64,000 nucleotides of DNA from Candidatus Latescibacterota bacterium. Its GTDB lineage: Bacteria; Latescibacterota; UBA2968; SICM01. Position numbers and translations under genes: made by a program. Position 1 is the first letter of the stretch; the number at the start of each line of letters is the position of its first letter. Under the pieces are notes generated by a model. It was not told the origin of the DNA. It ran no database searches and was given only the letters and a program-made list of their open reading frames with translations. Below, piece after piece: positions 1-61,568 of the stretch. The DNA lies in contig CBDCJO010000002.1 of the NCBI GenBank assembly GCA_965217865.1, positions 256,001 to 320,000 of the forward strand. The letters run 5' to 3'.

Positions 1-2
1 AA

Positions 3-506
3 CTCCAGCTCGAGGCACAAATCTCCCCTCTGCCACCGGTGGTGCTGGGAGGATTGCTGGTCGTTCCCAAGGGGCTCATCGATGAAATGAGTGGGCGTGA
101 ACCGGCGGGCACAAGAACGGCCGTGGATACGCAGGAATCGGCCGGCCGGGCGCGCAACATCATTATGGAGGTCGAGCGGAGTCTTGGATTTGACCCGACT
201 GACCGGGAGTTCGAGAAACTGGGGTACGACATCGAAAGCCGGGTGCCGGACACGGGCAAGCTTCGATTCATCGAGGTCAAGGGACGGGCCAGCGGCGCCT
301 CAACGATCACCGTCACGCGCAACGAGATTCTGTACTCCCTGAACAAGCCCGAGGACTTCATCCTCGGAATCGTGGAGTTCCAGGACGGCGGCCGGCATCA
401 GGTCCACTACGTTCGCGAACCCTTTCAGCGCGAGCCGGATTTCGGGGTGACGAGCGCCAACTACGATTTTACAGAGCTGCTTGCGCGAGCGGAAGAGCCG
501 TCATGA
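3..506 (+). CDS. C-terminus of SNF2-type helicase with DUF3883 (NOV_C-like PD-(D/E)xK nuclease) domain; runs off the window start
   Basis: Open frame from position 3; motif GYDIES...RFIEVKGR...TITVTRNE typical of DUF3883; lies directly upstream of DUF1156 methylase. Confidence 0.85.
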   Translation, partial: LQLEAQISPLPPVVLGGLLVVPKGLIDEMSGREPAGTRTAVDTQESAGRARNIIMEVERSLGFDPTDREFEKLGYDIESRVPDTGKLRFIEVKGRASGASTITVTRNEILYSLNKPEDFILGIVEFQDGGRHQVHYVREPFQREPDFGVTSANYDFTELLARAEEPS

Positions 507-531
507 AGGGGTCAGCAGAAGACAGAACGGC

Positions 532-3531
532 ATGAAGATCAAGAAGAAGCTGATTGAAGTCGCCTTGCCGCTGGATGCCATCAATAAGGCTGCTGCCTAC
601 GAGAAGATGCCCGGAATCGGGCCACATCCACGAGGCTTGCATCTTTGGTGGTCGCGTAAACCGTTAGCTGCGGCACGGGCGGTGATCTTTGCACAGATGG
701 TGGATGACCCGTCCGGGTATGTGGACGTGCTGCTGTCGGACACGAAAAAAAGGAGGGCTGCAGAGCGAGAGCTCAAGAAGCGCGTTGCGGGACATGCGGC
801 GAAGCGGGCATTGGCCCGCGACGACGCGATCGCCGAACCTCAGCCGACGCTGGAAGAGGTCATCGCTGAGCAGGAGCGTAACCGATTGTTCACCCTACTC
901 GAAGAATTGGTTCTTTGGGAGAACACTACGAGCGAAGAGGTGCTCGAACGGGCGCGGCGGGAGATCCGGCAGAGTTGGCGGCGGGCGTGTGCTGAGAACG
1001 CCGGCCATCCGCGTGCCAGGGAGTTGTTCGATCGTCACAAGCTCCCGGCTTTTCACGATCCGTTTGCGGGCGGAGGAGCGCTCCCGCTGGAGGCGCAGCG
1101 GTTGGGGCTGGAAGCGCATGCCAGCGACCTGAACCCGGTGGCCGTTCTGATCAACAAGGCCATGATCGAGATTCCGCCGAAATTCGCCGGCCGGGCGCCG
1201 ATGAATCCGGAGTTCCGAAAGGACAAGAACCTTTTCTCCCGAGAGGGGAAAGGGGCGCAGGGTTTAGCCGCAGACGTACGCTACTACGGCCAATGGATGC
1301 GCGACCAGGCCGAGAAGCGCCTCGGCCATCTCTACCCGAAAATCGAGGTCACCGCCGAAATGACAAAGGAGCGGCCCGACCTTGAACGCTATAAGGGACG
1401 ACGGCTGACGGTGATCGCCTGGCTGTGGGCGCGGACGGTGAAAAGCCCCAACCCCGCGTTTGCTGATGTCGAGGTGCCGCTGGCATCCACCTTCATGCTG
1501 TCGACGAAGAAGGGGAAAGAGGTTTATGTCGAACCGGTAATCGAGGACCGCGGGTATCGGTTTACAGTGAAGGTAGGCGCACCACCGAATTCTGCTAAGG
1601 CCGGGACGAAGCTATCGCGCGGGGCGAACTTCAAATGCTTAATATCTGGTACACCGATCGGGGGCGACTATATCAAAGCCGAAGGCAACGGCGGGCGCAT
1701 GGATGCACGGCTGATGGCTATCGTGGCCGAGGGCGACCGTGGTCGGGTCTACCTCGCACCGACTACCGATCATGAGCTGGCGGCGCGCCAAGCGAAGCCG
1801 GAGTGGATCCCAGGAAACGAGCTTGTCGGCAAATGCCGGGATCAGCTACCGCTCTACGGTATGAGTACCTTCGCCGACCTCTTCACCCCCCGCCAGCTCG
1901 TGGCGCTGACGACTTTCTCCGACCTGGTGACTGAGGCGCGGGCGCGGGTGGAGTGTGACGCCATCGTTGCTGGCCTCCCCGACGACAACCGACCGCTGCG
2001 CGAAGGTGGTGCAGGGGCAAAAGCCTATGCCGAGGCGGTGGGAGTGTATTTGGCGTTTGCAGTGGATCGTTGTAGCGACTTCAATAACGTCTGCACACGA
2101 TGGGTTCCCGGCAATCAGAAGGTGATGAGCCTATTCGGAAAACAAGCTATCGCTATGATCTGGGATTTTCCGGAAGCAGCCATTCTTCATGAGACGGTCG
2201 GTGGATTCGTTCCTACATCTAGATTCATTGCTGATTGCATTCTGAAACTGCCACAGCAAGGGACTGGGGGAGCCACACAACAAGATGCAATGACGAGCGT
2301 GCAAGCGAACGAAAAAGTAGTTTCAACAGACCCGCCTTACTACGACAACATCTGCTACGCTGATCTGTCCGATTTCTTCTACCTCTGGCTGCGCCGCTCG
2401 TTGCAGCCCATCTTTCCCGATCTCTTCTCCACACTCGCCGTCCCCAAAGCTGAGGAGTTGGTTGCCACCCCCTATCGTCACGGGGGTAAGAAACAGGCCG
2501 AGCAGTTTTTTTTGGACGGTATGACCCGGGTAATGCATCGCGTGGCGGAACAGGCTCACCCGGCTTTTCCCGTAACGATTTACTATGCGTTCAAGCAGTC
2601 CGAGGTCCGGGACGGCACCGGCACTGCGAGTACCGGCTGGGAAACGTTCCTCGACGCAGTGGCTCGTTCCGGCTTCGCGATTAGCGGTACGTGGCCGCTT
2701 CGGAGTGAACAGCAGTATCGAATGAACAGCTTGGCCGCGAATGCCCTCGCCTCCAGCATTGTCCTGGTCTGCCGCCGGCGTCCTTCCAACGCCCCGCTGG
2801 CCAGTCGCCGCGAGTTCATTGTCGCGCTGAAGGCAGAGCTGCCCGCCGCGCTCGCCCAGCTGCAAGCCGGTAACATCGCCCCGGTTGACCTCGCCCAGGC
2901 CGCCATTGGCCCGGGCATGGCGGTCTACACCCACTACGCCAAGGTGCTGGACGCCGAAGGCAACGCCCTCTCGGTGCGCGAAGCGCTGGTGCTGATCAAC
3001 CAAACTCTCGATGAAACGCTGGTCCAACAGGAGGGCGACTTCGACTCCGACAGCCGCTGGGCGTTCGCGTGGTTCGAGCAGTCCGGCTTCGACGAGGGCG
3101 AGTACGGCATCGCCGAGACGCTTTCCAAGGCCAAGAACACGAGCGTCACGGGTATGGTGGAGGCGGGGATTCTGGCCTCAAAGGGAGGGACGGTCCGGCT
3201 GCTGAAGCCCGAGGAACTGTCCGCCGTGTGGGATCCAACAACCGACCCGAGGCTGACCGCTTGGGAGATGGTTCATCATCTCGTACGAGCGCTGGAGACC
3301 GACGGTGAAAGCGCCGCAGCCGAGCTCGCGGCCCAACTCGGCGCCAAGGCCGAGGCAGCTCGCGAGTTGTGCTACCGCCTGTACACGCTATGTGAGCGCA
3401 GGAAACGCGCGGCGGAGGCGCTCTCCTACAACAGCCTGGTGCAGAGCTGGCCCGAGATCAGTCGCTTGGCGCGAGAAGAGCAGAAGGCCGAAGCTGAACA
3501 GACTACCCTGTTTGAGGGTGGGGAGAACTGA
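532..3531 (+). CDS. DUF1156-domain adenine-specific DNA methyltransferase
   Basis: KKKLIEVALPL and LHLWWSRKPLAAARAV N-terminus, DPFAGGGA SAM motif, TDPPYYDN catalytic motif; ATG at 532 preferred over the TTG at 481. Confidence 0.93.
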   Translation: MKIKKKLIEVALPLDAINKAAAYEKMPGIGPHPRGLHLWWSRKPLAAARAVIFAQMVDDPSGYVDVLLSDTKKRRAAERELKKRVAGHAAKRALARDDAIAEPQPTLEEVIAEQERNRLFTLLEELVLWENTTSEEVLERARREIRQSWRRACAENAGHPRARELFDRHKLPAFHDPFAGGGALPLEAQRLGLEAHASDLNPVAVLINKAMIEIPPKFAGRAPMNPEFRKDKNLFSREGKGAQGLAADVRYYGQWMRDQAEKRLGHLYPKIEVTAEMTKERPDLERYKGRRLTVIAWLWARTVKSPNPAFADVEVPLASTFMLSTKKGKEVYVEPVIEDRGYRFTVKVGAPPNSAKAGTKLSRGANFKCLISGTPIGGDYIKAEGNGGRMDARLMAIVAEGDRGRVYLAPTTDHELAARQAKPEWIPGNELVGKCRDQLPLYGMSTFADLFTPRQLVALTTFSDLVTEARARVECDAIVAGLPDDNRPLREGGAGAKAYAEAVGVYLAFAVDRCSDFNNVCTRWVPGNQKVMSLFGKQAIAMIWDFPEAAILHETVGGFVPTSRFIADCILKLPQQGTGGATQQDAMTSVQANEKVVSTDPPYYDNICYADLSDFFYLWLRRSLQPIFPDLFSTLAVPKAEELVATPYRHGGKKQAEQFFLDGMTRVMHRVAEQAHPAFPVTIYYAFKQSEVRDGTGTASTGWETFLDAVARSGFAISGTWPLRSEQQYRMNSLAANALASSIVLVCRRRPSNAPLASRREFIVALKAELPAALAQLQAGNIAPVDLAQAAIGPGMAVYTHYAKVLDAEGNALSVREALVLINQTLDETLVQQEGDFDSDSRWAFAWFEQSGFDEGEYGIAETLSKAKNTSVTGMVEAGILASKGGTVRLLKPEELSAVWDPTTDPRLTAWEMVHHLVRALETDGESAAAELAAQLGAKAEAARELCYRLYTLCERRKRAAEALSYNSLVQSWPEISRLAREEQKAEAEQTTLFEGGEN

Positions 3532-5477
3532 GCGGATAGTCACTCTGATACCACTCGGTACGCTTACTTCAAAGCGTCGAAGCAAGTCGGACGACCTGGG
3601 ATTCAAAGTGCGAAGGGGTGTTGATGTTTTTCCATCGGTAGGCGACCCCGTGTTACTTCCGACAGATGTCCAGCTACGCGCACTGATTGAGGGTGAGAGC
3701 GGCGATGTCGGTGGACGTATCCAGATTGGAGTATGCCCGACGGCTGGCGGCGAGCCCGTCCACGTCGATCCGGACAAGCTATTCGGCCGGCACTTGGCCG
3801 TGCTAGGCAATACCGGGGCGGGAAAATCCTGCACGGTAGCAGGATTGGTTCGGTGGTCACACGAAGCCGCGCAAGAGGCACGTGCGGAAGGCAACCCGAA
3901 TGCCAGATTCATCATTCTGGACCACAATGGAGAGTATGCTCGGGCATTCAGCGATCTTAGTCCACGTGTATTTCAGGTGGAGGGCAGTGGCTCCGCAAGC
4001 GCACTCAAGGTACCGGCGTGGCTGTGGAATGGAGAGGAATGGTCTGCGTTTACCGGCGCTGCGCCGGGGGTGCAACGACCGATCCTGTTTGACGCGATCC
4101 GAAGACTAAGGTCTGGCGCTGGTGAACCGGATGCCTTTGCAACGCGGGTTCGCGGACGAGTAAGGCGATATCGCACTGAGCTGTCGCTAAGAATTCAGAG
4201 AGGCGACCACCTGCAACTTGGACGACGAGAGGGCGTCGCTCAGCTGTTGATCAATCTGGCGTCCGATTTCGAAGAACTTGCTGGGGATTCCGAGAACCCG
4301 TTATATATGAATCTACTACAGACAGTCGTCGACTGTTCGCGCAATCTTGAAGAAGCTGCAAGAGGCCAGGAAAAGCAAGACGGAGGCTTTTGGCACAACG
4401 ACTTTGCAGAAGTGAATCTTGGAGAAGTTCAGCAAGCTCTGAAAGCAATGGCACAGCAAGCTGGACTGTCTGATGAGGACATCATCTCCGGAGAGGATAC
4501 CCCGAAGTTCTTCCCCGCTCGGGAGCTTCCTAGGTTCGTGGAGGCACTCGCCGCGGATGCTGCAGGACGCGATGTCTCCCAATTTGTTGACTCGTTGAAC
4601 CTCAGAATTCGAGGCCTATTTGCGGCTGGTCCTCTCGCGTCAATCGCAGACCCTGGTCACGTAGCGTCGTCGCTGGAGGAGTGGCTCAAGGATCACGTCG
4701 GCGCCGACCAGGCTGCGAACGGTCCGCTAGCTGTGCTGGACCTCTCACTTGTCCCGTCCGAGGCCGTACATGTCGTAGTGGCCGTGTTAGCGCGCATGGT
4801 CTTCGAAGCAGTTCAACGCCACAGAAGGTTAACGGGCGGAACTTCCCACAGTGTTGGTGCTTGATGAGGCCCACACATTTGTGCACCGGGAGCTTACATC
4901 CGAGACGGCCACGGCTGCCGGGAGAACATGCTGTCGGATGTTTGAGCGAATTGCGCGAGAGGGAAGGAAATTCGGGCTCGGATTGGTGCTGGCTTCTCAA
5001 CGCCCGTCGGAAATATCGCCGACCGTTCTCTCCCAATGCAACACGTTCCTGTTGCACCGCATTGTCAACGACCGAGACCAAGATTTGGTGAAACGCCTCG
5101 TCCCGGATGGGTTGTGTGATCTCCTTCGAGAACTGCCGAGTCTCCCATCTAGTACCAACCTGCGGAAATTCGCGTAATCTGATTTCCTAGCAAAAACAGG
5201 ATGTTAAGGGCGGATTTGCACGCATAAACTTGCGCAGCTAATTACTAGACGGGCGATTCTTCTGGGCTGGGGAGCACCGGCACCGCTTCTTTCGGAGGTG
5301 CGGGAGCTCCCGAATGCCCACCGCCCGCATTCGCCAGATCCGGCTTTTTGGGATGTCTGGACTGGGACCAAAGAATGCGGAATTGACTGGTCAAAGATTT
5401 CTAATCTCTGGGGTTCATCTCCTGAACCGAAGGGTGCAATACCAAACCCTGAAGCCCCTCACGAGACTCAGGAGTAA
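3532..5477 (+). pseudogene. herA: HerA/DUF87-type ATPase-helicase; 5'-truncated, frameshifted near 4840 and interrupted by a MITE at 5149-5248
   Basis: FPSVGDPV, HLAVLGNTGAGKS (Walker A), VLDEAH (Walker B), RIAREGRKFGLGLVLASQRPSE; no start codon; C-terminus RRAILLGWGAPAP...DPAFWDVWTG resumes after the MITE and stops at 5477. Confidence 0.88.
5153..5244. mobile_element. 92-bp MITE, copy 1, flanked by CTAG duplication (5149-5152 / 5245-5248)
   Basis: Near-identical copy at 21915-22006; imperfect terminal inverted repeats; removal restores the HerA frame (tct aga cgg). Confidence 0.92.
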
Positions 5478-5480: not shown

Positions 5481-8400
5481 ATGGCGATAACGAATCACGA
5501 ACGGGTCGGCAAGGCGCTGGATCTGCTCAAAGCGGGTCTGGGGCCGTTTGTCGAACGCGAGATCAGGAGTGCCTTGGAGTCACGCCAATTGGACGCCCAT
5601 CAATTGCGCGACTACGGGGAAGATCGCGTGTTGGGAAACAAGCCTATCCCTGAGCAGGACGTGGCCGGACTGCTCAAGCTGATGTGGGAAACCTGGAACG
5701 AGGTCTTTCGAAAGATTCTGGGACCGGCGGAGCGGGGTTTCGTCGGCGAGTTGCGCGGCCACCGCAACCAGTGGGCACACCAGGAGAGTTTCTCCAGCGA
5801 TGACGCCTATCGAGCTTTGGATTCGGTGGGCCGACTCCTTGCCGCGGTATCCGCACCGCAGTCAGAAGAGCTCGAGAAGCGCAAGCTGGAGCTGCTGCGG
5901 GTGCGTTTCGACGAACAGACGCGCGGGGAACGGCGCAAGCAGGCGGGAACGGCGATTGAAAGCGCCTCCGCGGCCAGCCTGAAGCCCTGGCGGGAAATCG
6001 TCACCCCCCACAAGGACGTTGCAAGTGGGCGATACCAACAAGCCGAGTTTGCCGCCGATCTCTGGCAGGTGCACCTGGGTGAAGGGACAGACGAGTATCG
6101 AGAACCCGTCGAGTTCTTCCGGCGAACGTATCTGACGGAAAGCCTGAAGGGTCTGTTGGTTGGGGCCATCCACCGTCTTGCAGGCAAAGGAGGCGATCCC
6201 GTCGTTCATCTCCAGACGAACTTCGGCGGCGGCAAGACCCACTCCATGCTGGCCCTGTATCACTTGTTCTCCGGGGTAGCCTCCGGGGAACTGGACGGGA
6301 TCGACCCCGTTTTGCAGGAGGCGGAGGCCACGGAGCTTGCGACGGTTCGCCGGGTCGTGTTGGTTGGAAACAAGATCTCCCCGGGGAACCCGGTCACCAA
6401 ACCGGATGGCACGGTCGTCCGAACACTCTGGGGTGAGCTGGCGTGGCAACTGGGCGGCAAGAAGGCGTTCAAGCGCGTCGCGGCCGACGACGAAAAGGCG
6501 ACCAGTCCAGGCGATGCACTGCGGGAACTCTTCAATGCATATGGTCCTTGTCTGATCCTCATCGATGAGTGGGTTGCCTACGCCAGACAGCTGCACGATC
6601 AGAGCGACCTCCCCGCCGGAGGCTTCGAGACCCAGTTCAGTTTTGCCCAGGTGCTCACGGAATCGGCCAAACTCGCCAACAACTGCCTACTCGTAATCAG
6701 CTTGCCGGCTTCGGACACGGCCAGGTCCCCCCACGCCCAGGCCGATGACGTCGAGGTCGGTGGGCAACGCGGGCGGGAGGCACTCGACCGCCTGCGGAAC
6801 GTCGTTGGGCGTATCGAATCGTCCTGGCGGCCGGCCAGTGCCGAGGAAAGCTTCGAGATTGTTCGCCGGCGGCTTTTCGAGCCCTTCACGGACCCTGTCC
6901 AATTCAGGGATAGGGACGTGGTTGCACGGGCATTTTCCGAGTTCTATCGGACCCAGCAGCAAGAGTTTCCGCCTGAGTGCCGGGACGCGGACTACGAGAA
7001 GCGGATCAAGGCAGCCTATCCGATACACCCCGAGATCTTCGATCGCCTGTACACGGATTGGTCGACGCTGGTGAAGTTCCAGCGCACGCGGGGCGTGTTG
7101 CGGTTGATGGCGGCCGTGATTCACAGCCTGTGGGAGAAAGGCGACAGGAACCCGCTGATTCTGCCGGCGAACATAGCGATCGATGATCCACGCGTACAGT
7201 TCGAGCTGACCCGGTATCTCCCCGAAAACTGGGTGCCGGTAATCGAGAAAGACGTGGACGGGCCCAACTCGCTGCCGCTCAAGATTGACGGCGCGCTTCC
7301 GAACCTGGGAAAGTTCCACGCTTCCAGACGCGTCGCGCGAGCGATTTATCTCGGATCCGCACCCACTGCCGATGCGGCGCATCGAGGTATCGAGGACCGT
7401 CGCGTCAAACTCGGCTGTGTCATGCCGGGAGAGTCTCCAGCGGTCTTCGGCGATGCACTGCGACGTCTGGCGAGTTCGGCGACGTACCTCTACCAGGATG
7501 GTCCTCGTTACTGGTACTCCACGCGGCCAACCGTCACCAAGCTGGCGGAGGATCGCGCCGAGCAGTTGAAGCATAACCCAGACAAGGTAGTGCAGGAGCT
7601 CGGTTGGCGACTCCGCTCGGATCTCCGCAAAACGGGTGACTTCAAACGGGTTCATCCTCTCCCGCAGTCCGGGCAGGACGTTCCGGATGATCGTGAGGCA
7701 CGACTTGTGGTGCTCGGAGTCGACACGCCCTACAGCAAAGAGAAGGGAAACCCCGCAGAGACCACGGCTCAGGCCATCCTGAAATTGCGGGGTAGCGCGC
7801 CGAGGATTTATCGCAACACGCTGGTGTTTCTGGCCGCGGACAAGACGAGGCTGCAGGATCTGGATGAGGCGGCCCGGCGGTACTTGGCATGGGAATCGAT
7901 ACTCGGCGATCGGGAACAGCTCAACCTTCCTCCTGATCAGGTCAAGCAGGCCGAAAACCGAAAGGAAGACGCGTCCAGCGCGGTTACGGCCCGGCTCCCG
8001 GAGACGTACCAGTGGCTCCTGGTTCCGGTTCAGAGCCGTCCCGAGGCCTCGATGGAGTGGCAGGCCATGAGGCTGTCGGGCCAGGATTCGCTCGCAGCCA
8101 AGGCGAGCAAGAAGCTGAAAACCGATGAGCTGCTGGTCACCGGCTTTGCCGCCACTCGGCTACGGATGGAGCTTGATCGCGTGCCTCTCTGGCGCGGCGA
8201 CCACGTGTCGATCCAACAAATCGTCGAGGATTTTGCGCGGTATCTCTATCTGCCACGGGTCAGCGACCCGACGGTTCTGCTGAACGCAATCAGCAACGGA
8301 ATCCCCCTTCTTACCTGGGAACAGGAGACGTATGCGTTCGCGGACAGCTTTGATGATGAGGCAAAGCGATATCGTGGTTTACGTGGTGGGCAAGTGGTTT

Positions 8401-8822
8401 CGTTACCGGATGCAGATGCTCCCGGATTGCTCGTCAAGCCGGATATCGCGCGTCAACAGCTCGATGCCGAGAGGGCACCCTCGGCCAGCAGTAGAGAAGT
8501 CGCCGGCGCAGGGACGGGTGGCGAGAGCCCGGTTCCCGGCGGAGGACCGAGTTCCGGGGAGGTTCCGTCGGGCACACCGCCGCCACAACCTACCCGGTTC
8601 CATGGGACCGTTGCTCTTGATTCCGCCCGGGTAGGCCGCGACGCGAGCCGGATTGCGGATGAGGTGATCTCACATCTTTCCGGCTTGGTGGGGGCTAAGG
8701 TCAAGGTGACCCTCGAAATAGAAGCCGAGGTGCCGTCAGGTGCCCCGGATCAGGTCATTCGCACGGTCACGGAGAACAGCCGGACACTGAAGTTCACGAG
8801 TCAGGGCTTTGAAAAAGAATAA
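5481..8822 (+). CDS. DUF499-family AAA+ ATPase with N-terminal Swt1-like HEPN domain
   Basis: RNQWAH HEPN motif, LKPWREIVTPHKDV, EFAADL, LQTNFGGGKTHS Walker A, ILIDEW Walker B; GGAG upstream of ATG. Confidence 0.93.
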   Translation: MAITNHERVGKALDLLKAGLGPFVEREIRSALESRQLDAHQLRDYGEDRVLGNKPIPEQDVAGLLKLMWETWNEVFRKILGPAERGFVGELRGHRNQWAHQESFSSDDAYRALDSVGRLLAAVSAPQSEELEKRKLELLRVRFDEQTRGERRKQAGTAIESASAASLKPWREIVTPHKDVASGRYQQAEFAADLWQVHLGEGTDEYREPVEFFRRTYLTESLKGLLVGAIHRLAGKGGDPVVHLQTNFGGGKTHSMLALYHLFSGVASGELDGIDPVLQEAEATELATVRRVVLVGNKISPGNPVTKPDGTVVRTLWGELAWQLGGKKAFKRVAADDEKATSPGDALRELFNAYGPCLILIDEWVAYARQLHDQSDLPAGGFETQFSFAQVLTESAKLANNCLLVISLPASDTARSPHAQADDVEVGGQRGREALDRLRNVVGRIESSWRPASAEESFEIVRRRLFEPFTDPVQFRDRDVVARAFSEFYRTQQQEFPPECRDADYEKRIKAAYPIHPEIFDRLYTDWSTLVKFQRTRGVLRLMAAVIHSLWEKGDRNPLILPANIAIDDPRVQFELTRYLPENWVPVIEKDVDGPNSLPLKIDGALPNLGKFHASRRVARAIYLGSAPTADAAHRGIEDRRVKLGCVMPGESPAVFGDALRRLASSATYLYQDGPRYWYSTRPTVTKLAEDRAEQLKHNPDKVVQELGWRLRSDLRKTGDFKRVHPLPQSGQDVPDDREARLVVLGVDTPYSKEKGNPAETTAQAILKLRGSAPRIYRNTLVFLAADKTRLQDLDEAARRYLAWESILGDREQLNLPPDQVKQAENRKEDASSAVTARLPETYQWLLVPVQSRPEASMEWQAMRLSGQDSLAAKASKKLKTDELLVTGFAATRLRMELDRVPLWRGDHVSIQQIVEDFARYLYLPRVSDPTVLLNAISNGIPLLTWEQETYAFADSFDDEAKRYRGLRGGQVVSLPDADAPGLLVKPDIARQQLDAERAPSASSREVAGAGTGGESPVPGGGPSSGEVPSGTPPPQPTRFHGTVALDSARVGRDASRIADEVISHLSGLVGAKVKVTLEIEAEVPSGAPDQVIRTVTENSRTLKFTSQGFEKE

Positions 8823-20038: not shown

Positions 20039-23000
20039 ATGCGTGCAGCGATGTCGTTGGAGATGAACAACCTGCTTGAACAAGCCACTGTCGCTCTCTG
20101 CGGGGCATTGGAGGAGTTCCTCCCTTCGCTCTCGGACACGTGGTGGGAAACCTGCGTGAAATCAAAGCTCTCTTTTCAACAGCACCAGCGCGTTATGCAG
20201 CGCAGCATTTCCCGCCTCGACCAACTTGACTTGGCAACACTACTTCGTCTCGTGGGCCAAAACTGGTATGAGTTGGCTGATTCGCACAACTGGCCATATC
20301 AGGGCCGCAACTTCGTCAAGGAGATGCAAACGGTCCGCAACCGCTGGGCGCATGCCGAGGTTACCGCGCCCCCGAGAGAGGATATCTATCGGGACCTCGA
20401 CACACTCCATCGCTTTCTAGCCCTTGTTTGTCCGGAATCAGAGCTGACGGAACGTGTGGCTGACGAGAAGAAGCAGATCCTCACCGAACAGCCGGAGCAC
20501 CCGCAACAGCCTCATCCATCCAAGAGTGCCTCGACACAGTTCTCTTTGGGGGATGTGGTAAGGCTACGGGCAGATCCTGAGAAGTCCGGCGCCGTTACAT
20601 CCGTCCACCCGATGGGACAGGAAACGCGCTATCAGGTCTTCATCAACGGGAAGGTTGGCTCCTTCTATGAAAGCCAGCTTCAGCTTGCAGAGGCAACTTC
20701 GGAGGCGGATTGGGTCGTCCCGCTCCAGGAATTCCACGCACGCTTGACCGCTCTACAGCTTCTCCATCCGAGCGTCTCGAAACTCTATTCACTCCACGCA
20801 GCGCGCATTGATCTCATCCCTTACCAGTTCCGTCCGGTCCTGAAGTTTATTCAATCTGACCGACCCAGGCTACTGATTGCCGACAGCGTTGGTGTCGGGA
20901 AGACGATTGAAGCCGGTTTGATTCTGCGCGAGTTGCAGGCGCGTCGCGACATACGCCGTGTTCTAATTGTCTGTCCCCGCCCACTCGTAACCGAGGAGAA
21001 ATGGCGCCTTGAGATGAAGCGGTTCGACGAGCGCTTCGAACACCTGGATGGCCCTAAATTGCGATACTGCATTTCGGAAACGGATCTGGACGGCGGATGG
21101 CCTCAGCAGTACGAGAAGGCAATTCTACCTTTTACGCTTTTGGCCGAGGAGTTCCTGCACGGCCGAGGTAAAAGGAAGGGTATTCTCGACTTGGACCCGC
21201 CACCGCAGTTCGATTTAGTCATCGTCGATGAGGCGCACCACATCCGTAACACAGAGACTCAGCGCCATCAAGCGGTCCGCTTCTTGTGCGACCACGCCGA
21301 AGCCGTCGTCTTCCTCACGGCTACCCCCATCCAATTGGGTGAACGTGACCTGTATGTCCTTCTCAACACCCTCCGTCCTGATGTCATCATCGATCAGGCT
21401 GGTTACACCGCGATCACGGAACCCAATGTGCACATCAATGAAGCTGCACTCATTGCCAGAGCCGGCGAGCCGGGCTGGGCCGGTCAGGCGAAGGCCGCAT
21501 TAGGCCGGGCGGCCGAGACTCCATGGGGGACAACCGTCCTCCAAGAAGACCCCCACTTTCAGAACATCTATGACGCACTGGGTGATTTCGGCGACGATCG
21601 GTCCAGGCGAGTCCAGGCCATACGCGAGATTGAACAGCTGCACACGTTGTCCGGTTTGATGAACCGGACACTTCGTCGAGATATTGGCGAGTTCACTCAG
21701 CGCAAGCCCGAAACGGTGCCCGTAGATTTCACTCCAGAGCAGCGCCAACTACATGACGCCGTGCTCGCTGCTCAGGCGTCGATCTATACGGCCCTCCACG
21801 GGGACTGGGCAGTGAATTTCCTACTGACCACAATCCGCCGCCAGGCCGCCAGCTGCATCCACGGTCTGGCTCCGCTTCTCCGCGACATCCTCACCCGAAG
21901 GATCGGAGAACTAGTACCAACCTGCGGAAATTCGCGTAATCTGATTTCCTAGCAAAAACAGGATGTTAAGGGCGGATTTGCACGCATAAACTTGCGCAGC
22001 TAAGTACTAGAATGGGACGAACTGGTGGACGCTGAGGGAGCGTCGGCAGGTGCCGACGATGCCGTCCCGAGGATCCGAGAGCTGGTGAACGAGGCGCTGG
22101 CCTTGGCGGAGAGACTGCCGCTCGGGACGGCTCGAGATCCGAAGTTCCAGGCTCTACGGAAAGTGCTGGAACAGAAGAAGGCCCTCACTAATAACAAGGT
22201 CATGCTGTTCAGCACCTTCCGCCACACACTCGCCTATCTCAACGGGGCCCTTCGAGAATCCGGATACCGTGTCGGTCTCATTCATGGGGGAGTCGATGAC
22301 GATGAACGTATCGCACTCCGCGCGTGCTTCGAGAAGGACCCACAGGATCCCGAGGCTCTTGATATCCTTCTTTTCTCCGAAGTCGGTTGCGAAGGTCTTG
22401 ACTACCAGTTCTGCGACTGCATTGTAAATTACGATCTTCCATGGAATCCTATGCAAATCGACCAACGCATCGGGCGCATCGACCGATGGGGTCAGGCGAG
22501 TGAAGCCATCGCGATCTATAATCTGATTACTTCCGGCACGGTTGACGCTGACATTTACGAGCGGTGTCTTCTCCGCATCGGGGTCTTCGAACGCGCCCTG
22601 GGAGCAAACGAGGTCATTCTCGGCAAAATCACACGGGAACTCACGAGTGTCGGTGAGAACCTGATGCTCACCAAGGAGGAACGACAAGCCAAGCTTGATC
22701 AACTAGCCGACAACAGCATCCGTCTGGTCAAGGAACAGCGGGACCTCGAGAACCGTCAGACGGAGCTATTCGGTTTACGGCTTCCGGCAGACCAGTTCCA
22801 ACAAGACGTAGACGACGCCACAAGTTACTGGCTGACCCCCGACTCTATCGACCGCCTCGTCACCCACTATCTGAAATCCGTCACCGGAAAAGAAGAGGCC
22901 CCTGTCCTCGGCGACGGGCCGAAGAAGACGCTGCGCATTTCGAGAACGGGCCGGGATGCGTTGCTCGCTGACTTCGTCAAACTAACAAGCCGCGTATCCA

Positions 23001-23683
23001 CCGTCGCACGGGAGTGGGAAATGTGGCTGAAGGGAGCTGAGCCCAATCTTTCCGTGACCTACGATTCAGCCTGCGCAAAGGATGACAGAACCGTGACCTT
23101 GATTACACCAGTCCATCTGCTAGCGCAACAAGCTGCCCACGCGGTGGCGGACGCAGACCAGGGACGCCCGTTGACCGGAATCGAGGTCTCAACCCCCAAT
23201 ATCACGCCGGGTGACTATCCATTTGCTGTCTACCAGTGGCAGTTCCACGGAATTCGCAACGACATCGAGTTCCAGCCGGTGACTACGCAGCCTGACCTAA
23301 CGGCCGAGTTTATTCGGCTCTTGCCGGGTGGCAGGGAATGCGCTCTATCCGGTGGTGGTCTCTCCCAACAGGACCGGGACAGTATCGAACAGCAGCATTA
23401 CCGGTTCTGGTCCGATGCCCGCGCCGAGCATGTTGAAGAAACCACTCGACTAGCCGATTTCCGGCGAGGAAGCCTTGAGACAAGTCACAAAGCCCGCATG
23501 GCCATCCTCGAATCTCAGCTTACCCAAGCGGCGAACGAACGCATCCGAATCATGAAGGCATCTCAACAAAAAAACGCCCAAGCCGACTACGAACGCCGGT
23601 CCAAGGAAATAGACGAGGCTACAAACAAGGCTGACATCACCGCCAAGCCCATCGCATGGGGAATCATCCGCGTGAGTACGTAG
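20039..23683 (+). pseudogene. Swt1-HEPN + SNF2/RapA-like helicase, split by the 92-bp MITE
   Basis: RNRWAH HEPN; LIADSVGVGKT, IVDEAH, LTATP in ORF 20039-21952; GCEGLD, YDLPWNP, QRIGRIDR in ORF 22025-23683; frames join when the MITE is removed. Confidence 0.92.
21915..22006. mobile_element. 92-bp MITE, copy 2, flanked by CTAG duplication (21911-21914 / 22007-22010)
   Basis: One substitution versus copy 1; removal gives gaa cta gaa tgg (ELEW) in frame. Confidence 0.92.
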
Positions 23684-23686: not shown

Positions 23687-26600
23687 ATGTCAAGCGACTA
23701 CGAAGCGATCACTCGCGACAATATCCGTCGGCGCGGCGAGGAGTTCGACGATATCGGCAATCTTCTCGCCGAAAAACTGTACGGAGACCGTGCTCACTTC
23801 ATCTATGAGCTGCTGCAGAACGCGGAGGATGCCCTTGCCTTACGTTACCAGAAGGACCCTAGCGTCTCAGGCGAGGTTACGTTCCGGTTATGCAGCGACC
23901 ACCTAGAAGTGAGCCATTACGGGAAGCTCTTCGATGAAGATGACGTGAAAGGTATCTGCGATGTTCTTCGCGGCACCAAGAATGAGCGTCTGGACCAAAT
24001 CGGCACGTTCGGTATTGGGTTCAAGTCCGTTTATGCCTTCACCCGTTCGCCTGAAGTTCATTCCGGCGACGAGCATTTCGTCATCAGGCACTTCATCCGC
24101 CCTCAGGCTGTGGAGCCACGTCCCCTCCAAGACCCTTTACAAACCTTATTTTATTTTCCCTTCGACCATCCTGACTTTGGAGCACCCGCTGTTTTTGACC
24201 TCATACAGAGCAGGCTGAAGTCCCTCGGCCCCAGGTCGCTTCTCTTCCTGCATCACGTCAAAGAGCTTCAATGGATAGTTGAAGGAGGTGACAGCGGTTT
24301 CTGCATGCGCGACCACCAGCCGAGTGAGAACGGCGGTGCCCTAGTTCAAATCATTGGAGAGGGCACTAACCAGGACGACTCTGAGGAGGAATGGCTGGTT
24401 GTACGTCGGGATGTCAATCACCCGTCTCGTCTTGAGAAGCTCCCCGTCAAGGTGGCATACAGTATAGAAGCGGATAAAGATGGTAGATTCATTGCCGCTC
24501 TTCACCGTTCGCCACTGACTGCGTTCTTCCCAACCGCGAAAGAGACGGGCCTCGGTTTTCTGATACACGGCCCCTTCGCCTCCACACCTGCCCGTGACAA
24601 CATCGCAACTGACTCGGATTGGAACAACTTGCTCTTGAATGAGCTTGCAACGTTGGTTTCTGACAGCCTAAGCGTGTGCAGACGGCACGGGTTTCTCACG
24701 CCGCAGTTTCTAACCGTGCTCCCGATCGACCAGGAGAGCTTCCCTGTAGGGTCGCCATTTCGCCCCATCTATGAGTCTGTTCTCAAAGCTTTCAAGACTC
24801 AATCCCTAATACCACGAGTCGGGGATGGCCACATAGAGGCGGACCGAGCGGTCTTAGGCCGCTCGCAGGAACTACGGGACCTGCTGTCTCCCGCGCTCCT
24901 GGCGGAGCTGCTCGGCACTTCCGCTCAGAATAGGCGCTGGGTTGATGCCGCCGTCACAGAGAACCGTTTTTCCAAAGTCTGGAAGTACTTGCGCGACGAA
25001 TGCGATGTTCCTGTCCTGGACGGTGATGCGTTCGCACGGCAGATCACAGGCCACTTTTTGGAAGCCCGCGATGATAAATGGATGGTGCGCTTTTATGCTT
25101 TTCTGAACGGGCAAGAGGCCCTCTGGAGAGATCAAGGAGTATCTCGCTACGCTCTCGAAGGCCCCCTGCGCAAGAAGGCGATTATTCGATGCCAGGACGG
25201 ACAACATCGTACGCCTTTTGATAGCGCGGGGAATCCCTTTGTCTTTCTCCCAGTAAAATCAAAGGCCGACTACCATGTCGTGCACAGATCCATCTATGCG
25301 AATGAAGAGGCAGCGGAGTTCATGCACCGGCTCGGGTTGGTCCCACCCGACATCTGCACCCGCGTTCTCAATGAAATTATCCCGCTGTACCAGGATGACT
25401 CGGAAATCGAGAACGAGGCCCACGAAGAGCATCTCTCAGTAATCGCCACGGCCATGGACCTGGAGGACTCCCCGCGCTATACCGCGATGTTGTCGGAGCT
25501 GAAAACGACTACTTGGGCTCTGGCCACCAACGCAGGAACTGGCGACCAATACTACGAAGCACCCACAAAACTGTTCTTCCCGTCGTCTGAGCTACAAACC
25601 TTCTTTAAACTTAACGAGGACGTGTCGTTCCTGGCCGAAGAGGAAAAGCAAATCGACTGGCAGAAACTCGGCGTACGCAGAGATCCAGTCATTCACTGTC
25701 GGGGGCTCCGTACGAAGCGTAATTCCTTCGTGTCCCTATATTCCTCTTACGGCTGGCACCAGCGCGGTTACGACGGCTTCGACCCGGAAACAGCTGTTGG
25801 CGGTCTCGACTATGCTCTCACCAACATCACGCACCCCAGGGCAGCATACATTTGGAATGATCTGTTACCTCCCATCATGCGATTCCTCCATGGCCGCTAC
25901 CAGCGGGCAACACACCAGAACTACGACAATGCAACCACCCATGAAAAAGATTCCGTCGTCTGCAAGATGCTGAAGAGCCATGCCTGGATTCCGGTACGAA
26001 GTGGCGAGTTCAAGAAACCTGCCGAGTGCACACTTGCCGACTTGGCCGGCGAATTGAAACGGAATGAAGATCTGGCAGAGGTTCTTGGCGTCCATCCCGA
26101 TCCTGCGAAGGTGGCCGGGGAGAGGCCCGAAAGTGAACAGAACCTTGTTGCCAAGGCAGGATTCTCCCCTGAGGTTGCCACCCTCCTCGTCAACAACAAA
26201 GCGGTTCTAACGCCGGAACTTATCAACGAGATGCTGGCCAGCTTGGCAAGTCCGCCCCCGTTTCCCGAGCGGCCCGTTACCGACAAAGAGCGCCGAGTTG
26301 ATCGGGTCTGTGAACGCGTGAAGAAGGCGGCCCCCCCCAAGGCTTGCGACAAACGAAAGCGCTCCATTCGTACTCCCAAACTCGAAATCCCGGCAGACGT
26401 TTGGCTTCGCGAGATGTACACGAACCAAGAGGGTACGACTATTTGCCAAATGTGCCGCAAGGCAATGCCCTTCAAACTTCCCTGGACGGGAGAGTATTAC
26501 TTTGAAGCCGTTCAGATAGCGGACAATTTTCCTATCGAGGACCATTGTCTGTACTTGGCTTTGTGCCCGCTGTGTGCAGCCAGGTACAAGGTATTGGTGA

Positions 26601-26764
26601 AGCGAGGCGAGCATTATCTCAAGGAGTTCATTTGGGCGATAAAGGTGGCGAGGGAGCGGGTTGTTTCAGTAGGGAAGGACGGCAGTTCGTGTACGGTACG
26701 TTTCGTTGAATCCCATCTTCTTGACGCGAAGACGGCCTGTCAGAATGCCTATCCTGATGACTAG
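23687..26764 (+). CDS. Sacsin-like GHKL ATPase with C-terminal Zn-binding HNH-like domain
   Basis: ELLQNAEDA and IGTFGIGFKSVY GHKL motifs, FLIHGPF...R; C-terminal CQMC...LALCPLC; starts 3 nt after helicase stop. Confidence 0.85.
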   Translation: MSSDYEAITRDNIRRRGEEFDDIGNLLAEKLYGDRAHFIYELLQNAEDALALRYQKDPSVSGEVTFRLCSDHLEVSHYGKLFDEDDVKGICDVLRGTKNERLDQIGTFGIGFKSVYAFTRSPEVHSGDEHFVIRHFIRPQAVEPRPLQDPLQTLFYFPFDHPDFGAPAVFDLIQSRLKSLGPRSLLFLHHVKELQWIVEGGDSGFCMRDHQPSENGGALVQIIGEGTNQDDSEEEWLVVRRDVNHPSRLEKLPVKVAYSIEADKDGRFIAALHRSPLTAFFPTAKETGLGFLIHGPFASTPARDNIATDSDWNNLLLNELATLVSDSLSVCRRHGFLTPQFLTVLPIDQESFPVGSPFRPIYESVLKAFKTQSLIPRVGDGHIEADRAVLGRSQELRDLLSPALLAELLGTSAQNRRWVDAAVTENRFSKVWKYLRDECDVPVLDGDAFARQITGHFLEARDDKWMVRFYAFLNGQEALWRDQGVSRYALEGPLRKKAIIRCQDGQHRTPFDSAGNPFVFLPVKSKADYHVVHRSIYANEEAAEFMHRLGLVPPDICTRVLNEIIPLYQDDSEIENEAHEEHLSVIATAMDLEDSPRYTAMLSELKTTTWALATNAGTGDQYYEAPTKLFFPSSELQTFFKLNEDVSFLAEEEKQIDWQKLGVRRDPVIHCRGLRTKRNSFVSLYSSYGWHQRGYDGFDPETAVGGLDYALTNITHPRAAYIWNDLLPPIMRFLHGRYQRATHQNYDNATTHEKDSVVCKMLKSHAWIPVRSGEFKKPAECTLADLAGELKRNEDLAEVLGVHPDPAKVAGERPESEQNLVAKAGFSPEVATLLVNNKAVLTPELINEMLASLASPPPFPERPVTDKERRVDRVCERVKKAAPPKACDKRKRSIRTPKLEIPADVWLREMYTNQEGTTICQMCRKAMPFKLPWTGEYYFEAVQIADNFPIEDHCLYLALCPLCAARYKVLVKRGEHYLKEFIWAIKVARERVVSVGKDGSSCTVRFVESHLLDAKTACQNAYPDD

Positions 26765-26974: not shown

Positions 26975-27119
26975 GACCGGACCCACCGGGTCCGGCTTCC
27001 AGTGAATACGTACCGGAGGACCTTCCCAAACGTCGAACCAGGCTGTTAAATAAGGCCGACGGGAAAAACAGAGAATCAGAGAATCCGGAGGAGATATCTC
27101 TGCTCAGCGGACGCAACCC
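26975..27119 (+). repeat. 145-bp non-coding repeat, short copy (longer context at 39167-39500)
   Basis: Matches 39167-39311 with three substitutions. Confidence 0.9.
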
Positions 27120-27159
27120 TAAGCATGGGTTCTGGAACGCGCCTGCGGCTACTCCCGTG

Positions 27160-28954: not shown

Positions 28955-29060
28955 TATCTTTTGTCTGAGATCGCCCGAAAAAACGGGGGCAAGGTCGAAG
29001 CAAGATCCTGGTTGCCTGTAGGGTTGAGAAGGGATACATATTTTGGGATATCCCTGACCT
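28955..29060 (+). mobile_element. Isolated 106-bp left end of the IS3-type element found at 57808-59372
   Basis: Reverse complement of 59267-59372, starting exactly at the element terminus. Confidence 0.88.
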
Positions 29061-39166: not shown

Positions 39167-39500
39167 GACCGGACCCACCGGGTCCGGCTTCCAGTGAATA
39201 CGTATCGGAGGACCTTCCTAAACGTCGAACCAGGCTGTTAAACAAGGCCGACGGGAAAAACAGAGAATCAGAGAATCCGGAGGAGATATCTCTGCTCAGC
39301 GGACGCAACCCCACGGTTGTGCTCGAACACCGGGGGGAACGCTTCGAAACAGAGAATCGGCAGAGAGGGGAAGGAGGTGGCACAAGTGTTTGTGAATACG
39401 GCAGAAACGACAGGACCCCGAAGGGTTGCCCCACGGGGTCTTGCGTTAACGGACGACCGCCTAAGTTGGCGGATGAGAATATGGCTCCCCATATGATCCT
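39167..39500 (+). repeat. Structured non-coding segment, possibly a transposon end
   Basis: First 145 bp repeated at 26975; hairpins ccggaccc-a-ccgggtccgg and gacccc...ggggtc; no credible ORF. Confidence 0.5.
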
Positions 39501-42878: not shown

Positions 42879-42933
42879 CCAACAAGCCCGCCGGACAAGA
42901 TGAATCCGTTGGATTGAGCGTCGTAGGCGATTC

Positions 42934-44069
42934 TTCTGTTTCGTTCCGACGGGTATCGGACGGAAACGTCAAAGTCGATCGTTCGTCGTTAATTTCAGCA
43001 GGGGCTAGGAAGTGCCAGTTTTTGATCTTTTTTCATATCGCAAACGGCGGGCCGAGGGCGAAAGACCGGATGTATTCGTCTACGACACGCTTCCCCAGCC
43101 ACTCCGAGTGCAAATCGTCCGAATTATGCAAGATGCTATCGGCCGATTTCATGTCTATAATTCCCCGTTCGATGGCGCGATCGAGAACAATAAAGGCTGG
43201 CAAATTATCCACGATACGGTTGCCCGGGAGCATGGTGTATTCCGGTTAGCGGATGAAATAAAACTAGATGCTCGTTGCGCGTATTTTCTTCTCAACTGTG
43301 ATTCGGTGAAACGAGTGCTTGATCTTGTTGAATTCAGCTTTCGCTACGTCGATAAGATTGCCCGGATATTCAACGAACATGATCGCCAGAGAAAAGGGAT
43401 AGAGGTGACAGCAAGCGATGCAATTGCTGAGCTCAACGAGCGTTTCCGACGTGCTGGCGTGGGATATCAATTTGAGGAGGGAAAGATCTTTCGTGTCGAC
43501 TCAGAATTGATTCACTCCGAAGTGGTGCGGCCCGCGCTTCGACATCTCCACCAAAAGGGCTTTGAGGGGCCACGTGATGAATTCATCCGCGCGCACAAGC
43601 ATTACCGTGCTGGCGAAATGCAAGATGCAATCACGGATGCCAACAACGCGTTCGAAAGCACATTGAAGGCGATTTGCGATCAGAAAGGTTGGCGGTATCC
43701 AGAGGGTGCCCGTGCTTCGGATCTTCTCAAGCTAGTGCGCGCGAAGGATCTTTTGCCAGACTATCTGGACCGGTCGTTCGACCAGCTGATTGCTACACTT
43801 AAGTCGGGTCTTCCGGAAGTGAGGAACGAGGAGGGTGCTCATGGCCAAGGAGCAACACCGCGGAAGACACCCAATTATGTGGCGGCCTACGCGCTCCATT
43901 TGGCGGCCGCCAACATACTGTTTCTCGCTGAAGCGCATAAAGCGATGAAATAAATAAGGCATACCGTGATGTTTCGCTTCATCAGACGGCTGTTCGGGAA
44001 CGATGTCACCACGGCCGATAGCCGGGGCGGCGACGACACGGAGTTGGTCGTTCATCGATCGTCCCGCGC
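42934..44069 (+). repeat. 1.14-kb direct repeat, copy 1 (copy 2 at 61569-62720)
   Basis: Near-identical sequence; copy 2 is 16 bp longer. Confidence 0.95.
43012..43953 (+). CDS. Abortive-infection family protein (AbiJ-like N-terminus + Abi_C/HEPN; STM4504/CBY_0614-like), copy 1
   Basis: DVFVYD.LP..LRVQI, AFESTLKAI, VRNEEGAHGQG. Confidence 0.85.
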   Translation: MPVFDLFSYRKRRAEGERPDVFVYDTLPQPLRVQIVRIMQDAIGRFHVYNSPFDGAIENNKGWQIIHDTVAREHGVFRLADEIKLDARCAYFLLNCDSVKRVLDLVEFSFRYVDKIARIFNEHDRQRKGIEVTASDAIAELNERFRRAGVGYQFEEGKIFRVDSELIHSEVVRPALRHLHQKGFEGPRDEFIRAHKHYRAGEMQDAITDANNAFESTLKAICDQKGWRYPEGARASDLLKLVRAKDLLPDYLDRSFDQLIATLKSGLPEVRNEEGAHGQGATPRKTPNYVAAYALHLAAANILFLAEAHKAMK

Positions 44070-50479: not shown

Positions 50480-52801
50480 ATGAACAACAAAACACGACTC
50501 CTCGGCCCGCTCTTGACCGATCCTGACAAGCTCAAGAGACAAGCCGCCAAGTGTCGGGATGTCTTTGGCCAAGTTTCCGTAGCAAAATCGGATGTAGAAG
50601 CCTATCTCAAAGATGGCTGGGAAGTCGACAAGGAGCTTAAGCACAAGACGCATCTCAAACGAAGACGTGCGGCTGACGAGTTGCTGGAGAATCGCGTCTG
50701 GCTGCTTCTGTTTCTCTTGGGCTACCATGAACTCAATGATGGACGCAAGTTTTCTATCCTTGTCGAGCGTAAAGGTGCAGATCCAATCCGAAAGCAAATC
50801 GACGTCTTCGCAAAGGACGAGGAAACGGTGATTGTGGCTGAATGCAAAGCATCAGAAAAGTTGAAATGTAGGAGCTTGCAGAAGGATATTAAGGAACTCG
50901 CAAACCTGAAGGGCCCTCTTGCGAATGCCATAAAGAAACACTACGGTTCTAGTTTCAAGCCGAAAATCATATGGCTCTTTGTGACTCAGAACATAATCTG
51001 GTCCAAGCTGGACAAAGAACGTGCTGCAGGGGAAAAAATCCGCACGATCACAGAGAAAGAGCTTCCCTACTACAGCCAAATCGCTAATCATCTGCGCATG
51101 GCTGCCCGGTTCCAGTTCTTGGCAGAGTTTCTGAAGGATCAGAAGATCCCAGAACTCGCGAATCGGAAAGTCCCAGCGATCCGCGGCAAGCTCGGCGGTC
51201 ATACCTTCCATTGTTTTGTCACAACGCCAAAGGAGTTATTAAAAATTTCTTTTATTAACCATCGGTCCCTGAATGACCCAGACGGCGCACCTACTTATCA
51301 GCGACTCGTCACCCGTTTCCGAATGAAACAGATCAAACTGTTCTTGCTCGACGGGGGATTCTTTCCAACGAACATCCTCATTAACTTCACGAGACAGGTC
51401 CGCTTCGAGACTGTTTCCAAAGATGACAAGGCAGACGTTGCGTACGGGTACCTCTACATGCCCGATCGATACAGATCTGCGTGGGTCATCGACGGACAGC
51501 ACCGCCTCTATGGATTCGCCCTACTCAATGAGAAGCATCTCAGCCAAAACATCGTCGTCATTGCTTTTCATAGACTGAGCAAGGAACATGAAGCGAATCT
51601 CTTTGTGACAATCAACCATGAACAGAAATCTGTTCCAAAGAGTTTGTTGGACGACTTGGAAGGTGAACTGAAATGGGACTCCGATGTCCCCTCAGAACGC
51701 GTGGGAGCGATCAGCGCCCGTTTGATTGGCGGCCTCAATGCAGATATAAACGGGCCCCTCTATGAACGCGTAACACAGCAAGGCATAATAGCAACCGAGA
51801 AAACCTGCCTCACGGTCCCCGCGCTCAAAGATGGATTGCGGCGGTCTGGGCTCGTCGGCAAGTCCATACTGAAACGTAAGGAATACGAGCCCGGGGCGTT
51901 GTGTGGAACAACAGATTCAGAAACTCTTGACCGGGCTAGAGCAGCGTTGAATCAGTATTTCTCCCTCATACGATCCAGTTCTCCGACGCAATGGGAAATG
52001 GGGACAAGCGGGTTCTTTTGCTCCAACGTCGCGCTCCAAGCATATCTGCAGCTCTTGGCTGCCCTCGTGGCTTACATGGAGACGAACAAAGGCCTGAACG
52101 CACAAGAGTTGACACCGGAAGAGATCCTCTCGAATGTAGAGGAGTACTTGGACCCAATCCTCAAATGGCTATCTGATGCAACGCCCGTTGACATAGAAAA
52201 AACATTTAAGGTCCAGTTTGGGTCTGGTGGTCCTCGAGAGTACTTCTTTAGATTGTGCCGAATCATCAAGGCGGAGTTTTCTGATTTCGAGCCAGAAGGC
52301 ATGGGCGCGTGGGAACAAGAACAGTCGACAGAGCGCATCGAAATGGCAGATCGAAAGTTGAAGGAACTCAACATCCTTGTACAAAAGTCTATATTTGGCC
52401 AGTTCAAGGCGAAATATGGCACCGAAAAAAACGCATATTGGGAGAAAGGGGTTACCGACAGGAAGATTAAAATGCGTGCATATGAGAAGTCCCAAGATGA
52501 CGACATGGAAAAACGACTTCCTCTTGAGAATTACCTCAACTTCATTGAGTATAAGAATATCGTGGACAATAAGACTCATTGGCGCCTTTTCAAGCCCGTC
52601 TTCGACATTCCGGAACCTGGAGAAAAGGGATACTCCAAGAACGTGCGCTGGATGGAGAGGGTCAACAAACTACGGAGGATTCAAGCGCATCCTACTGAAA
52701 GCCGACGTTATAGGCTTGATGACTTTGAGTATATCGACTATATATACGAGCAATTCACCACCAAGCGGCAGGAGGCCGTTTCCACCGGGGAATTGGAGTG
52801 A
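50480..52801 (+). CDS. DGQHR/DndB-domain protein with N-terminal PD-(D/E)xK nuclease and C-terminal Swt1-like HEPN domain
   Basis: QIDVF...VAECK; YQR, FPTNI, VIDGQHRL, LFVTIN.EQK; LRRIQAHP. Confidence 0.88.
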   Translation: MNNKTRLLGPLLTDPDKLKRQAAKCRDVFGQVSVAKSDVEAYLKDGWEVDKELKHKTHLKRRRAADELLENRVWLLLFLLGYHELNDGRKFSILVERKGADPIRKQIDVFAKDEETVIVAECKASEKLKCRSLQKDIKELANLKGPLANAIKKHYGSSFKPKIIWLFVTQNIIWSKLDKERAAGEKIRTITEKELPYYSQIANHLRMAARFQFLAEFLKDQKIPELANRKVPAIRGKLGGHTFHCFVTTPKELLKISFINHRSLNDPDGAPTYQRLVTRFRMKQIKLFLLDGGFFPTNILINFTRQVRFETVSKDDKADVAYGYLYMPDRYRSAWVIDGQHRLYGFALLNEKHLSQNIVVIAFHRLSKEHEANLFVTINHEQKSVPKSLLDDLEGELKWDSDVPSERVGAISARLIGGLNADINGPLYERVTQQGIIATEKTCLTVPALKDGLRRSGLVGKSILKRKEYEPGALCGTTDSETLDRARAALNQYFSLIRSSSPTQWEMGTSGFFCSNVALQAYLQLLAALVAYMETNKGLNAQELTPEEILSNVEEYLDPILKWLSDATPVDIEKTFKVQFGSGGPREYFFRLCRIIKAEFSDFEPEGMGAWEQEQSTERIEMADRKLKELNILVQKSIFGQFKAKYGTEKNAYWEKGVTDRKIKMRAYEKSQDDDMEKRLPLENYLNFIEYKNIVDNKTHWRLFKPVFDIPEPGEKGYSKNVRWMERVNKLRRIQAHPTESRRYRLDDFEYIDYIYEQFTTKRQEAVSTGELE

Positions 52802-61513: not shown

Positions 61514-61568
61514 GGAAGTCCATTCATGACAAGTGGATCGACAAACCTATATCGAGGTTTCCGTCTTT

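Follow-up and report, generated by a model that had tools for sequence, protein, structure and literature searches.

A CTAG-flanked 92-bp MITE in a HerA remnant and an SNF2 helicase gene, and its probable IS630-family helper

Genes at the two insertion sites

The window, that is, the whole stretch of 64,000 nucleotides analysed, begins with part of an Hma operon, in which a remnant of a HerA-type ATPase gene lies between hmaB and hmaC (Table 1). Further downstream, a gene combining Swt1-HEPN and SNF2 helicase parts is followed by a sacsin-domain gene. As the earlier note had recognised, the HerA remnant and the SNF2 gene carry the same 92-bp element, in both cases enclosed by two CTAG tetranucleotides (5149-5248 and 21911-22010) and in the same orientation, with a single substitution between the two copies (T at 5242, G at 22004).

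Table 1. Coordinates of the genes and elements discussed (window positions unless a contig is named)
Feature	Position	Strand	Remarks
hmaA 3' end, SNF2 helicase of Hma system	1..506	+	1303-codon frame, uninterrupted; PADLOC E 0
hmaB, Hma methylase	481..3531	+	PADLOC HmaB E 0
HerA-type ATPase remnant	3533..5477	+	matches residues 95-710 of 710-aa homologues; frameshifted; carries MITE
Frameshift in HerA remnant	4836..4838	+	separate from and upstream of MITE
Left CTAG of copy 1	5149..5152	+	read from the sequence
MITE copy 1	5153..5244	+	in HerA remnant; junctions present in X1 and X5 contigs that show 0 differences
Right CTAG of copy 1	5245..5248	+	read from the sequence
hmaC, Hma ATPase	5481..8822	+	PADLOC HmaC E 0
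Swt1-HEPN + SNF2 helicase gene	20039..23683	+	no lesion seen other than the MITE
Left CTAG of copy 2	21911..21914	+	read from the sequence
MITE copy 2	21915..22006	+	in SNF2 gene; equals family majority sequence
Right CTAG of copy 2	22007..22010	+	read from the sequence
Sacsin-domain, TmtA-like gene	23687..26764	+	directly after SNF2 gene
IS-A, intact IS630 element, ISRj1 type	C2:2238054-2239221		1168 bp; transposase of 355 aa at C2:2238147-2239211

Compared with each of four homologues (710-712 aa), the HerA sequence has no match before residue 95; its reading frame changes at about 4837, and the element follows downstream. Residues 1-94 have no copy elsewhere in the genome. The frameshift is crossed by contigs with 0 differences in all four of the public runs concerned, from two studies, from position 4808 onward, these contigs starting 30 letters ahead of the shift, one below the 31-letter bridging threshold. 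Intact HerA and SNF2 homologues contain the words PSRRAILLGW and IGELEWDEL, respectively, and the element appears against them as one 32-residue gap. Deletion of copy 1 in silico repairs the reading frame locally and brings back PSRRAILLGW, yet the gene as a whole, which lacks its N-terminus and is frameshifted, is not restored. The proposal that the element is what knocked out HerA is therefore not supported, and for the same two reasons its excision could not revive the gene; the gene had likely lost its function, or was losing it, before copy 1 inserted. Inserted genes are described in about two thirds of Hma systems (PMC11232893). In contigs of runs X3 and X4 hmaB is joined directly to hmaC (window 3512-5453), so that the HerA remnant is an optional part of this operon.

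In alignments with five of five homologues the SNF2 gene matches over its whole length, the gap at the element being its sole interruption, and in-silico deletion of copy 2 restores IGELEWDEL. Partial PADLOC matches and the TmtA-like neighbour point to a defence role of this gene. The TmtA-like protein (1025 aa) covers positions 30-803 of a 1302-position profile and may be truncated.

Structure and copies of the element

The element measures 92 bp, or 94 bp if the duplication consists of TA only. The net insert of 96 bp, in which stops had been reported for the three forward frames, contains stops in all six, and an element as short as this, stopped in every frame, is non-coding. Its ends, TACCAACC and TACTTAGC, form the imperfect inverted repeat that had been described, agreeing at 11 of 16 positions after CTAG, and they pair in the predicted fold (z -2.8).

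A BLASTN search with the 92-mer against its own genome assembly (G000; 6.43 Mb, 96% complete, 9.3% contamination) gave 29 matches, comprising 19 full copies, two truncated copies (71 and 45 bases) and eight short chance matches. The full copies are 93-100% identical, with E values of 1e-36 or better, which excludes chance resemblance. The 18 ungapped copies carry 0-6 changes relative to the family majority; four of them, the SNF2 copy among these, show no change, and copy 1 has one, in its right end. One pair of copies represents a passive 1.9-kb duplication, so the full copies occupy 18 distinct insertion sites, with flanks that are distinct and unrelated to one another. The suspicion that a young, multi-copy MITE was at hand is borne out by these figures. 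Four element flanks found in public runs are missing from the assembly, indicating further copies in DNA outside it; the depth of the element in the runs, 40-140 times that of the flanks, is a summed contig depth and gives no copy number.

Contamination of the assembly, its many broken genes and the lack of a filled SNF2 junction among the 15 of 38 joints listed might raise the question of whether the insertions are assembly artefacts. Such an origin is scarcely conceivable, as the element has been recovered with 18 different flanks, all showing a target duplication, and contigs of runs X1 and X5 read across the HerA junctions with 0 differences (the 31-letter rule is satisfied by one contig and missed by 1-3 letters in three others). 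The evidence from public runs consists of contigs throughout, and the best-matching run may be the source sample.

The following searches beyond the genome found no copy of the element. Rfam contained no family, plasmid and phage collections gave 0 matches, and a DNA-level search of 40 relatives gave none. The exact end pattern had 0 matches in 124 other genomes of the phylum; with one mismatch allowed it had two in 131 other genomes of the class, neither of them an element. An internal pattern had 0 matches in a collection of genome contigs, and viral scans for the patterns of the element returned 0, 2 and 1 matches, none an element. The one metagenome match (L014) shares about 27 terminal bases only and was taken as a chance match. 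Neither a promoter-like nor a terminator-like site was found in 21880-22040, and no RNA run is among the listed carriers of the sequence. The literature searches, in full text and with three end motifs of the element, found no paper on it or on precise excision of IS630 at CTAG. Judged by the Rfam, plasmid, phage and literature searches, the element appears to be a new MITE of a familiar type, in line with the earlier note, which took it as probably uncatalogued; it may already be listed in the supplements of a survey that reports MITEs in 56.5% of 183,232 genomes (bioRxiv 10.1101/2024.01.18.576219).

Gene-inactivating MITEs are well described (PMC10969869), and two of them resemble the present element. 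RUP of Streptococcus pneumoniae is likewise about 100 bp long, non-coding and multi-copy, with ends similar to those of the resident IS630-Spn1, and it occurs near IS elements and pseudogenes and disrupts genes strain by strain (PMC3049150). The likeness is one of description; unlike RUP, the element requires the full CTAG, and whereas RUP is apparently dormant according to the same source, the element has copies identical to the majority and flanks that vary between samples. MITEPsy1 of Pseudomonas syringae, with 100 nt, a CTAG or YTAA target and a 4-nt duplication, also inactivates genes, but its ends, GGAAGGTCTG... and GTATCCTCTG..., are tied to the IS5-family ISPsy2, while those of the element are of IS630 type; with a net gain of 104 it disrupts the reading frame, whereas the 96 bp inserted here keep the frame but bring in stops (PMC3189936). 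The element is useful as a strain marker and is a source of split gene calls, and is otherwise an unsurprising IS630-linked MITE of an uncultured bacterium.

Target site and genomic distribution

CTAG, with the expected TA target within it, is found at both ends of 18 of the 19 full copies. Three paralogous empty sites in all, covering two copies, contain a single CTAG; together with a joint at the SNF2 site that skips 96 bases (see below), they demonstrate target-site duplication. Recognisable genes are interrupted by five of the 19 copies, namely the HerA remnant, the SNF2 gene, an SRAP gene, a SAM methyltransferase and a type III restriction-like gene. Two copies lie on the stop codons of genes (nuclease, integrase) and five on the terminal CTAG of other elements (remnants of IS-A and IS-C, two IS1380 ends and a second MITE); one is in a dispersed repeat, and the other six are intergenic or unresolved. 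That repeat family is represented in the window at 26975-27132, 39167-39324 and 54057-54104 and has 29 long matches in the genome, with short and long variants.

The first 600 kb of contig C2 holds 12 of the 19 copies of this contig, truncated ones included, but 16.8% of its CTAGs (p 8e-6, with a boundary picked after inspection and copies that are not independent). At C2:530459-533127, three MITE copies with two common variants, an IS1380 end and an IS-C remnant are joined via shared CTAGs. Three copies within 2 kb having two variants in common suggest that the element may hop locally. A 1303-bp stretch between two MITE copies, considered as a possible IS, proved to be a single-copy mosaic.

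Both copies in the window lie in HerA and SNF2 genes, and, with the type III restriction-like gene, three of the 19 copies lie in genes of defence type. It is nevertheless very improbable that the element targets anti-phage helicase genes or is under selection within them. The probability that random choice among CTAGs would place both window copies in HerA and SNF2 is 0.033, in a test chosen after seeing the data; since 23 of the 47 CTAG sites in the window lie in defence-type genes, two hits in such genes have a probability of 0.23. The other targets include the SRAP gene, the methyltransferase, stop codons, IS ends and a repeat, and hmaA, the Hma helicase gene, has an uninterrupted frame. 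The three hits in defence genes follow from the richness of the window in such genes, and with 3/19 copies there is no case for aiming at them.

Helper transposase

In agreement with the earlier note, the window contains no cognate transposase: the genome has 33 matches to DDE_3, the IS630 domain, none of which lies within the 64 kb. Elsewhere on contig C2 the IS630 element IS-A is present in one complete copy. Its transposase scores 254.7 bits against NF033545 (IS630; cut-off 100), contains PF13358 and a helix-turn-helix domain, and retains the complete DDE triad (D176, D259, E294). When each of the 5,386 non-MITE CTAG reads of the genome was scored over its next 26 bases against the ends of the element, IS-A ends occupied ranks 1-3 for the left end (17, 16 and 16 of 26), while for the right end IS-A reached the joint top score of 15 of 26, tied by two unrelated sites. 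The ends match in register, left with left, and blastn of the element against IS-A gave no match, the interior included. The moderate end identity (17 and 15 of 26) and the lack of an interior match mean that the element may descend from a sister of IS-A that has been lost or is missing from the assembly. As far as the ends can tell, IS-A itself is a likely candidate for the helper, acting in trans.

The closest named relative of IS-A is ISRj1 of Bradyrhizobium, with a transposase 56% identical and ends that also begin CTAGTACC; a duplicated CTAG target is reported for it (PMC8692435). IS630 of Shigella sonnei likewise targets CTAG, with a 2-bp duplication (PMC2577343). Both are autonomous, unlike the element, and the ends of ISRj1 diverge from those of the element after about base 12. 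Of the genome's 64 CTAGTAC reads, those that were examined and carry a transposase are IS630. Independent support for an IS630-type helper comes from genome G200, where an autonomous IS630 of 1148 bp, 60% identical to IS-A, has ends CTAGTACCTACTTGC, so that ends of this family enclose an IS630 gene there. A search of viral sequences with the IS-A protein gave no viral locus.

G200 is of the same class as a deltaproteobacterial MAG bearing repeats of 145-180 bp with nearly the same end. Such repeats, with IS630-type ends CTAGTACC...TTGC around a palindromic core that we take to be REP-like, occur at L159-L188 in genome G132 and at L235, L242 and L244 in G241. G132 has these related repeats, yet no DDE_3 match.

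Of the three helper families named at the outset, IS630, IS701 and IS5, the first is well supported and the others are not. IS701 (PF13546) has 0 matches in the 96%-complete genome, and the same search was positive in three of 14 genomes serving as a control. MITEPsy1 provides a precedent for an IS5-linked MITE that duplicates CTAG (PMC3189936), but TACCAACC and TACTTAGC are unlike the published ends of MITEPsy1 and ISPsy2 when compared by eye, and dependence on IS5 is not supported. The most plausible competitor would be an abundant IS1380-like element (1841 bp, NF033539), 22 of whose 24 full copies have CTAG at both ends. Its ends share 4-8 of 16 positions with those of the MITE, which is within the genome background, and other resident CTAG elements also share 4-8 of 16; against the IS630 nature of the CTAGTAC-bearing transposase genes and the G200 end family, a helper from any other CTAG-targeting family is very unlikely.

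The copies of the IS1380-like element (C2:2630029-2631869 and 23 more sites) vary in the base just inside each CTAG and are otherwise 99% identical. A second MITE, of 192 bp between CTAGs, is present in 18 full copies (C2:524612-524811 and 17 more sites); its ends match the right end of IS-C, a nine-copy IS630 element, and one of its copies reads CTAC/CTAC.

Overall, the non-coding 92-bp element has in our view quite probably been moved in trans into CTAG by an IS630-family transposase of the ISRj1 type, and its hits in genes would be one-way, tolerated damage. The transposase would bind the element ends of about 30 bp through its helix-turn-helix domain and then excise the element, and host repair would produce the target duplication. 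Copies would be gained by repair from the sister chromosome, and local hopping and tolerance would let them build up in the first 600 kb of C2, which is rich in islands.

Excision and the state of the SNF2 gene

ISY100, a model for the IS630/Tc1/mariner elements, supplies the chemistry expected of such a helper: its transposase cleaves at the 3' ends and 2 nt in from the 5' ends, inserts into TA targets generally, duplicating the dinucleotide on both sides, and leaves a re-joined donor that reads TATATA (PMC2170065). Applied here, this chemistry would leave four extra bases and the gene would stay broken; excision of the MITE would thus not restore the frame. The corresponding footprints, CTAGTTAG, are not enriched in the genome (4 observed, 4.9 expected).

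Several ends found here break the ISY100 rule. Read by eye, 74 of 80 copies of related IS630 elements have CTAG at both ends. Among the odd ones, CTAG/CTAT and ATAG/CTAT (L105, L143) fit a duplication of TA only, while GTAG/GTAG and TTAG/TTAG need a longer one; the remainder are CTGG/CTAG and one irregular case. Two further sites read CTAC/CTAC; in all, a duplication of 3-4 bp is needed at four sites, L086, L148, L179 and C2:3831230. In IS-C, two of nine copies (99.7-99.8% identical) read CTAG/CTGG, and two of the 24 IS1380 copies have one CCAG, one of these sites being shared with IS-C. The MITE copy at C2:244187 reads CTAT/CCAG, although short-form empty paralogues of its site have CCAG in 13 of 15 cases and CTAG in 0 of 15; this odd copy lies in one paralogue of the dispersed repeat represented at window 26975-27132. 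As no fixed duplication of TA or of 4 bp fits all of the non-CTAG ends, the ISY100 chemistry may not apply.

The earlier note had suggested that precise excision could act as an on/off switch for the helicase gene, and proposed looking for empty CTAG alleles at both sites. For HerA, which has two further lesions, the switch does not hold, and no empty joint at 5149 was found in any of four runs (X3 and X4 having no flank coverage). At 21911 an empty site does exist in contigs: a joint that skips 96 bases, from 21909 to 22006, is present in X1 and X4, which belong to two studies, at depths of 18.6 and 6.66, respectively, among the 15 of 38 joints listed; among the same 15 of 38, none comes from X3 or X8. 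These depths resemble those of contigs with 0 differences, of same-strain-like origin, in X1 and X4, and the run contigs at this locus were aligned at 90% likeness, so that the empty ones may come from relatives. With the SNF2 gene whole apart from the element, the empty sites would suit a switch, but they could equally be pre-insertion alleles. The simpler reading is that they are pre-insertion alleles in lineages lacking a young insertion, and copy 2 is likely to be a very recent insertion that is not carried by all lineages.

A different chemistry would make the switch workable. If transposases of the ISRj1 type broke the TA rule and used four-base CTAG overhangs, as piggyBac, which excises without a footprint (PMC3064801), does at TTAA, excision would be clean and the SNF2 gene could be turned off and on in the population. 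Overhangs carried along with the element would explain the mixture of odd ends, in which the odd base stands on both sides in four cases (L086, L148, L179 and C2:3831230) and elsewhere on a single side. The CTAT/CCAG copy at C2:244187, inserted where empty paralogues mostly read CCAG, the unremarkable number of footprints, and the precise empty site in two of four runs, at depths near those of 0-difference contigs, in a gene that is otherwise whole against five of five homologues, are all compatible with clean excision. We nonetheless regard it as unlikely. In the one bacterial IS630 for which there is in vitro work, the cut lies 2 nt inside and TA is duplicated (PMC2170065), the empty SNF2 contigs may derive from relatives at 90% likeness, and HerA stays broken even after excision. 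One-sided CCAG ends occur on the IS1380-like element too (2/24), and the genome has two vsr genes and is depleted in CTAG (observed/expected 0.43-0.47), so that host repair could explain one-sided ends and is a fair rival as their source. That the MITE leaves without a scar and toggles an intact SNF2 gene in wild populations is accordingly a doubtful proposition; if true, it would mean that a DDE transposase of bacteria can excise its element scarlessly and that a gene is reversibly knocked out in nature. One-way insertion by an IS630-family helper remains the preferred account.

Other features of the window

Two identical copies of a 106-bp sequence lie in inverted orientation at window 28955-29060 and 59267-59372, and the genome has 47 matches to it of at least 90 bases; the second copy adjoins an IS1595-type transposase. 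Two near-identical AbiJ-NTD4/HEPN genes are located 18.6 kb apart (window 42931-44069 and 61566-62720). The region at window 50480-53637 comprises a DndB/DpdB-like gene (773 aa) followed by a Dam-type methylase.
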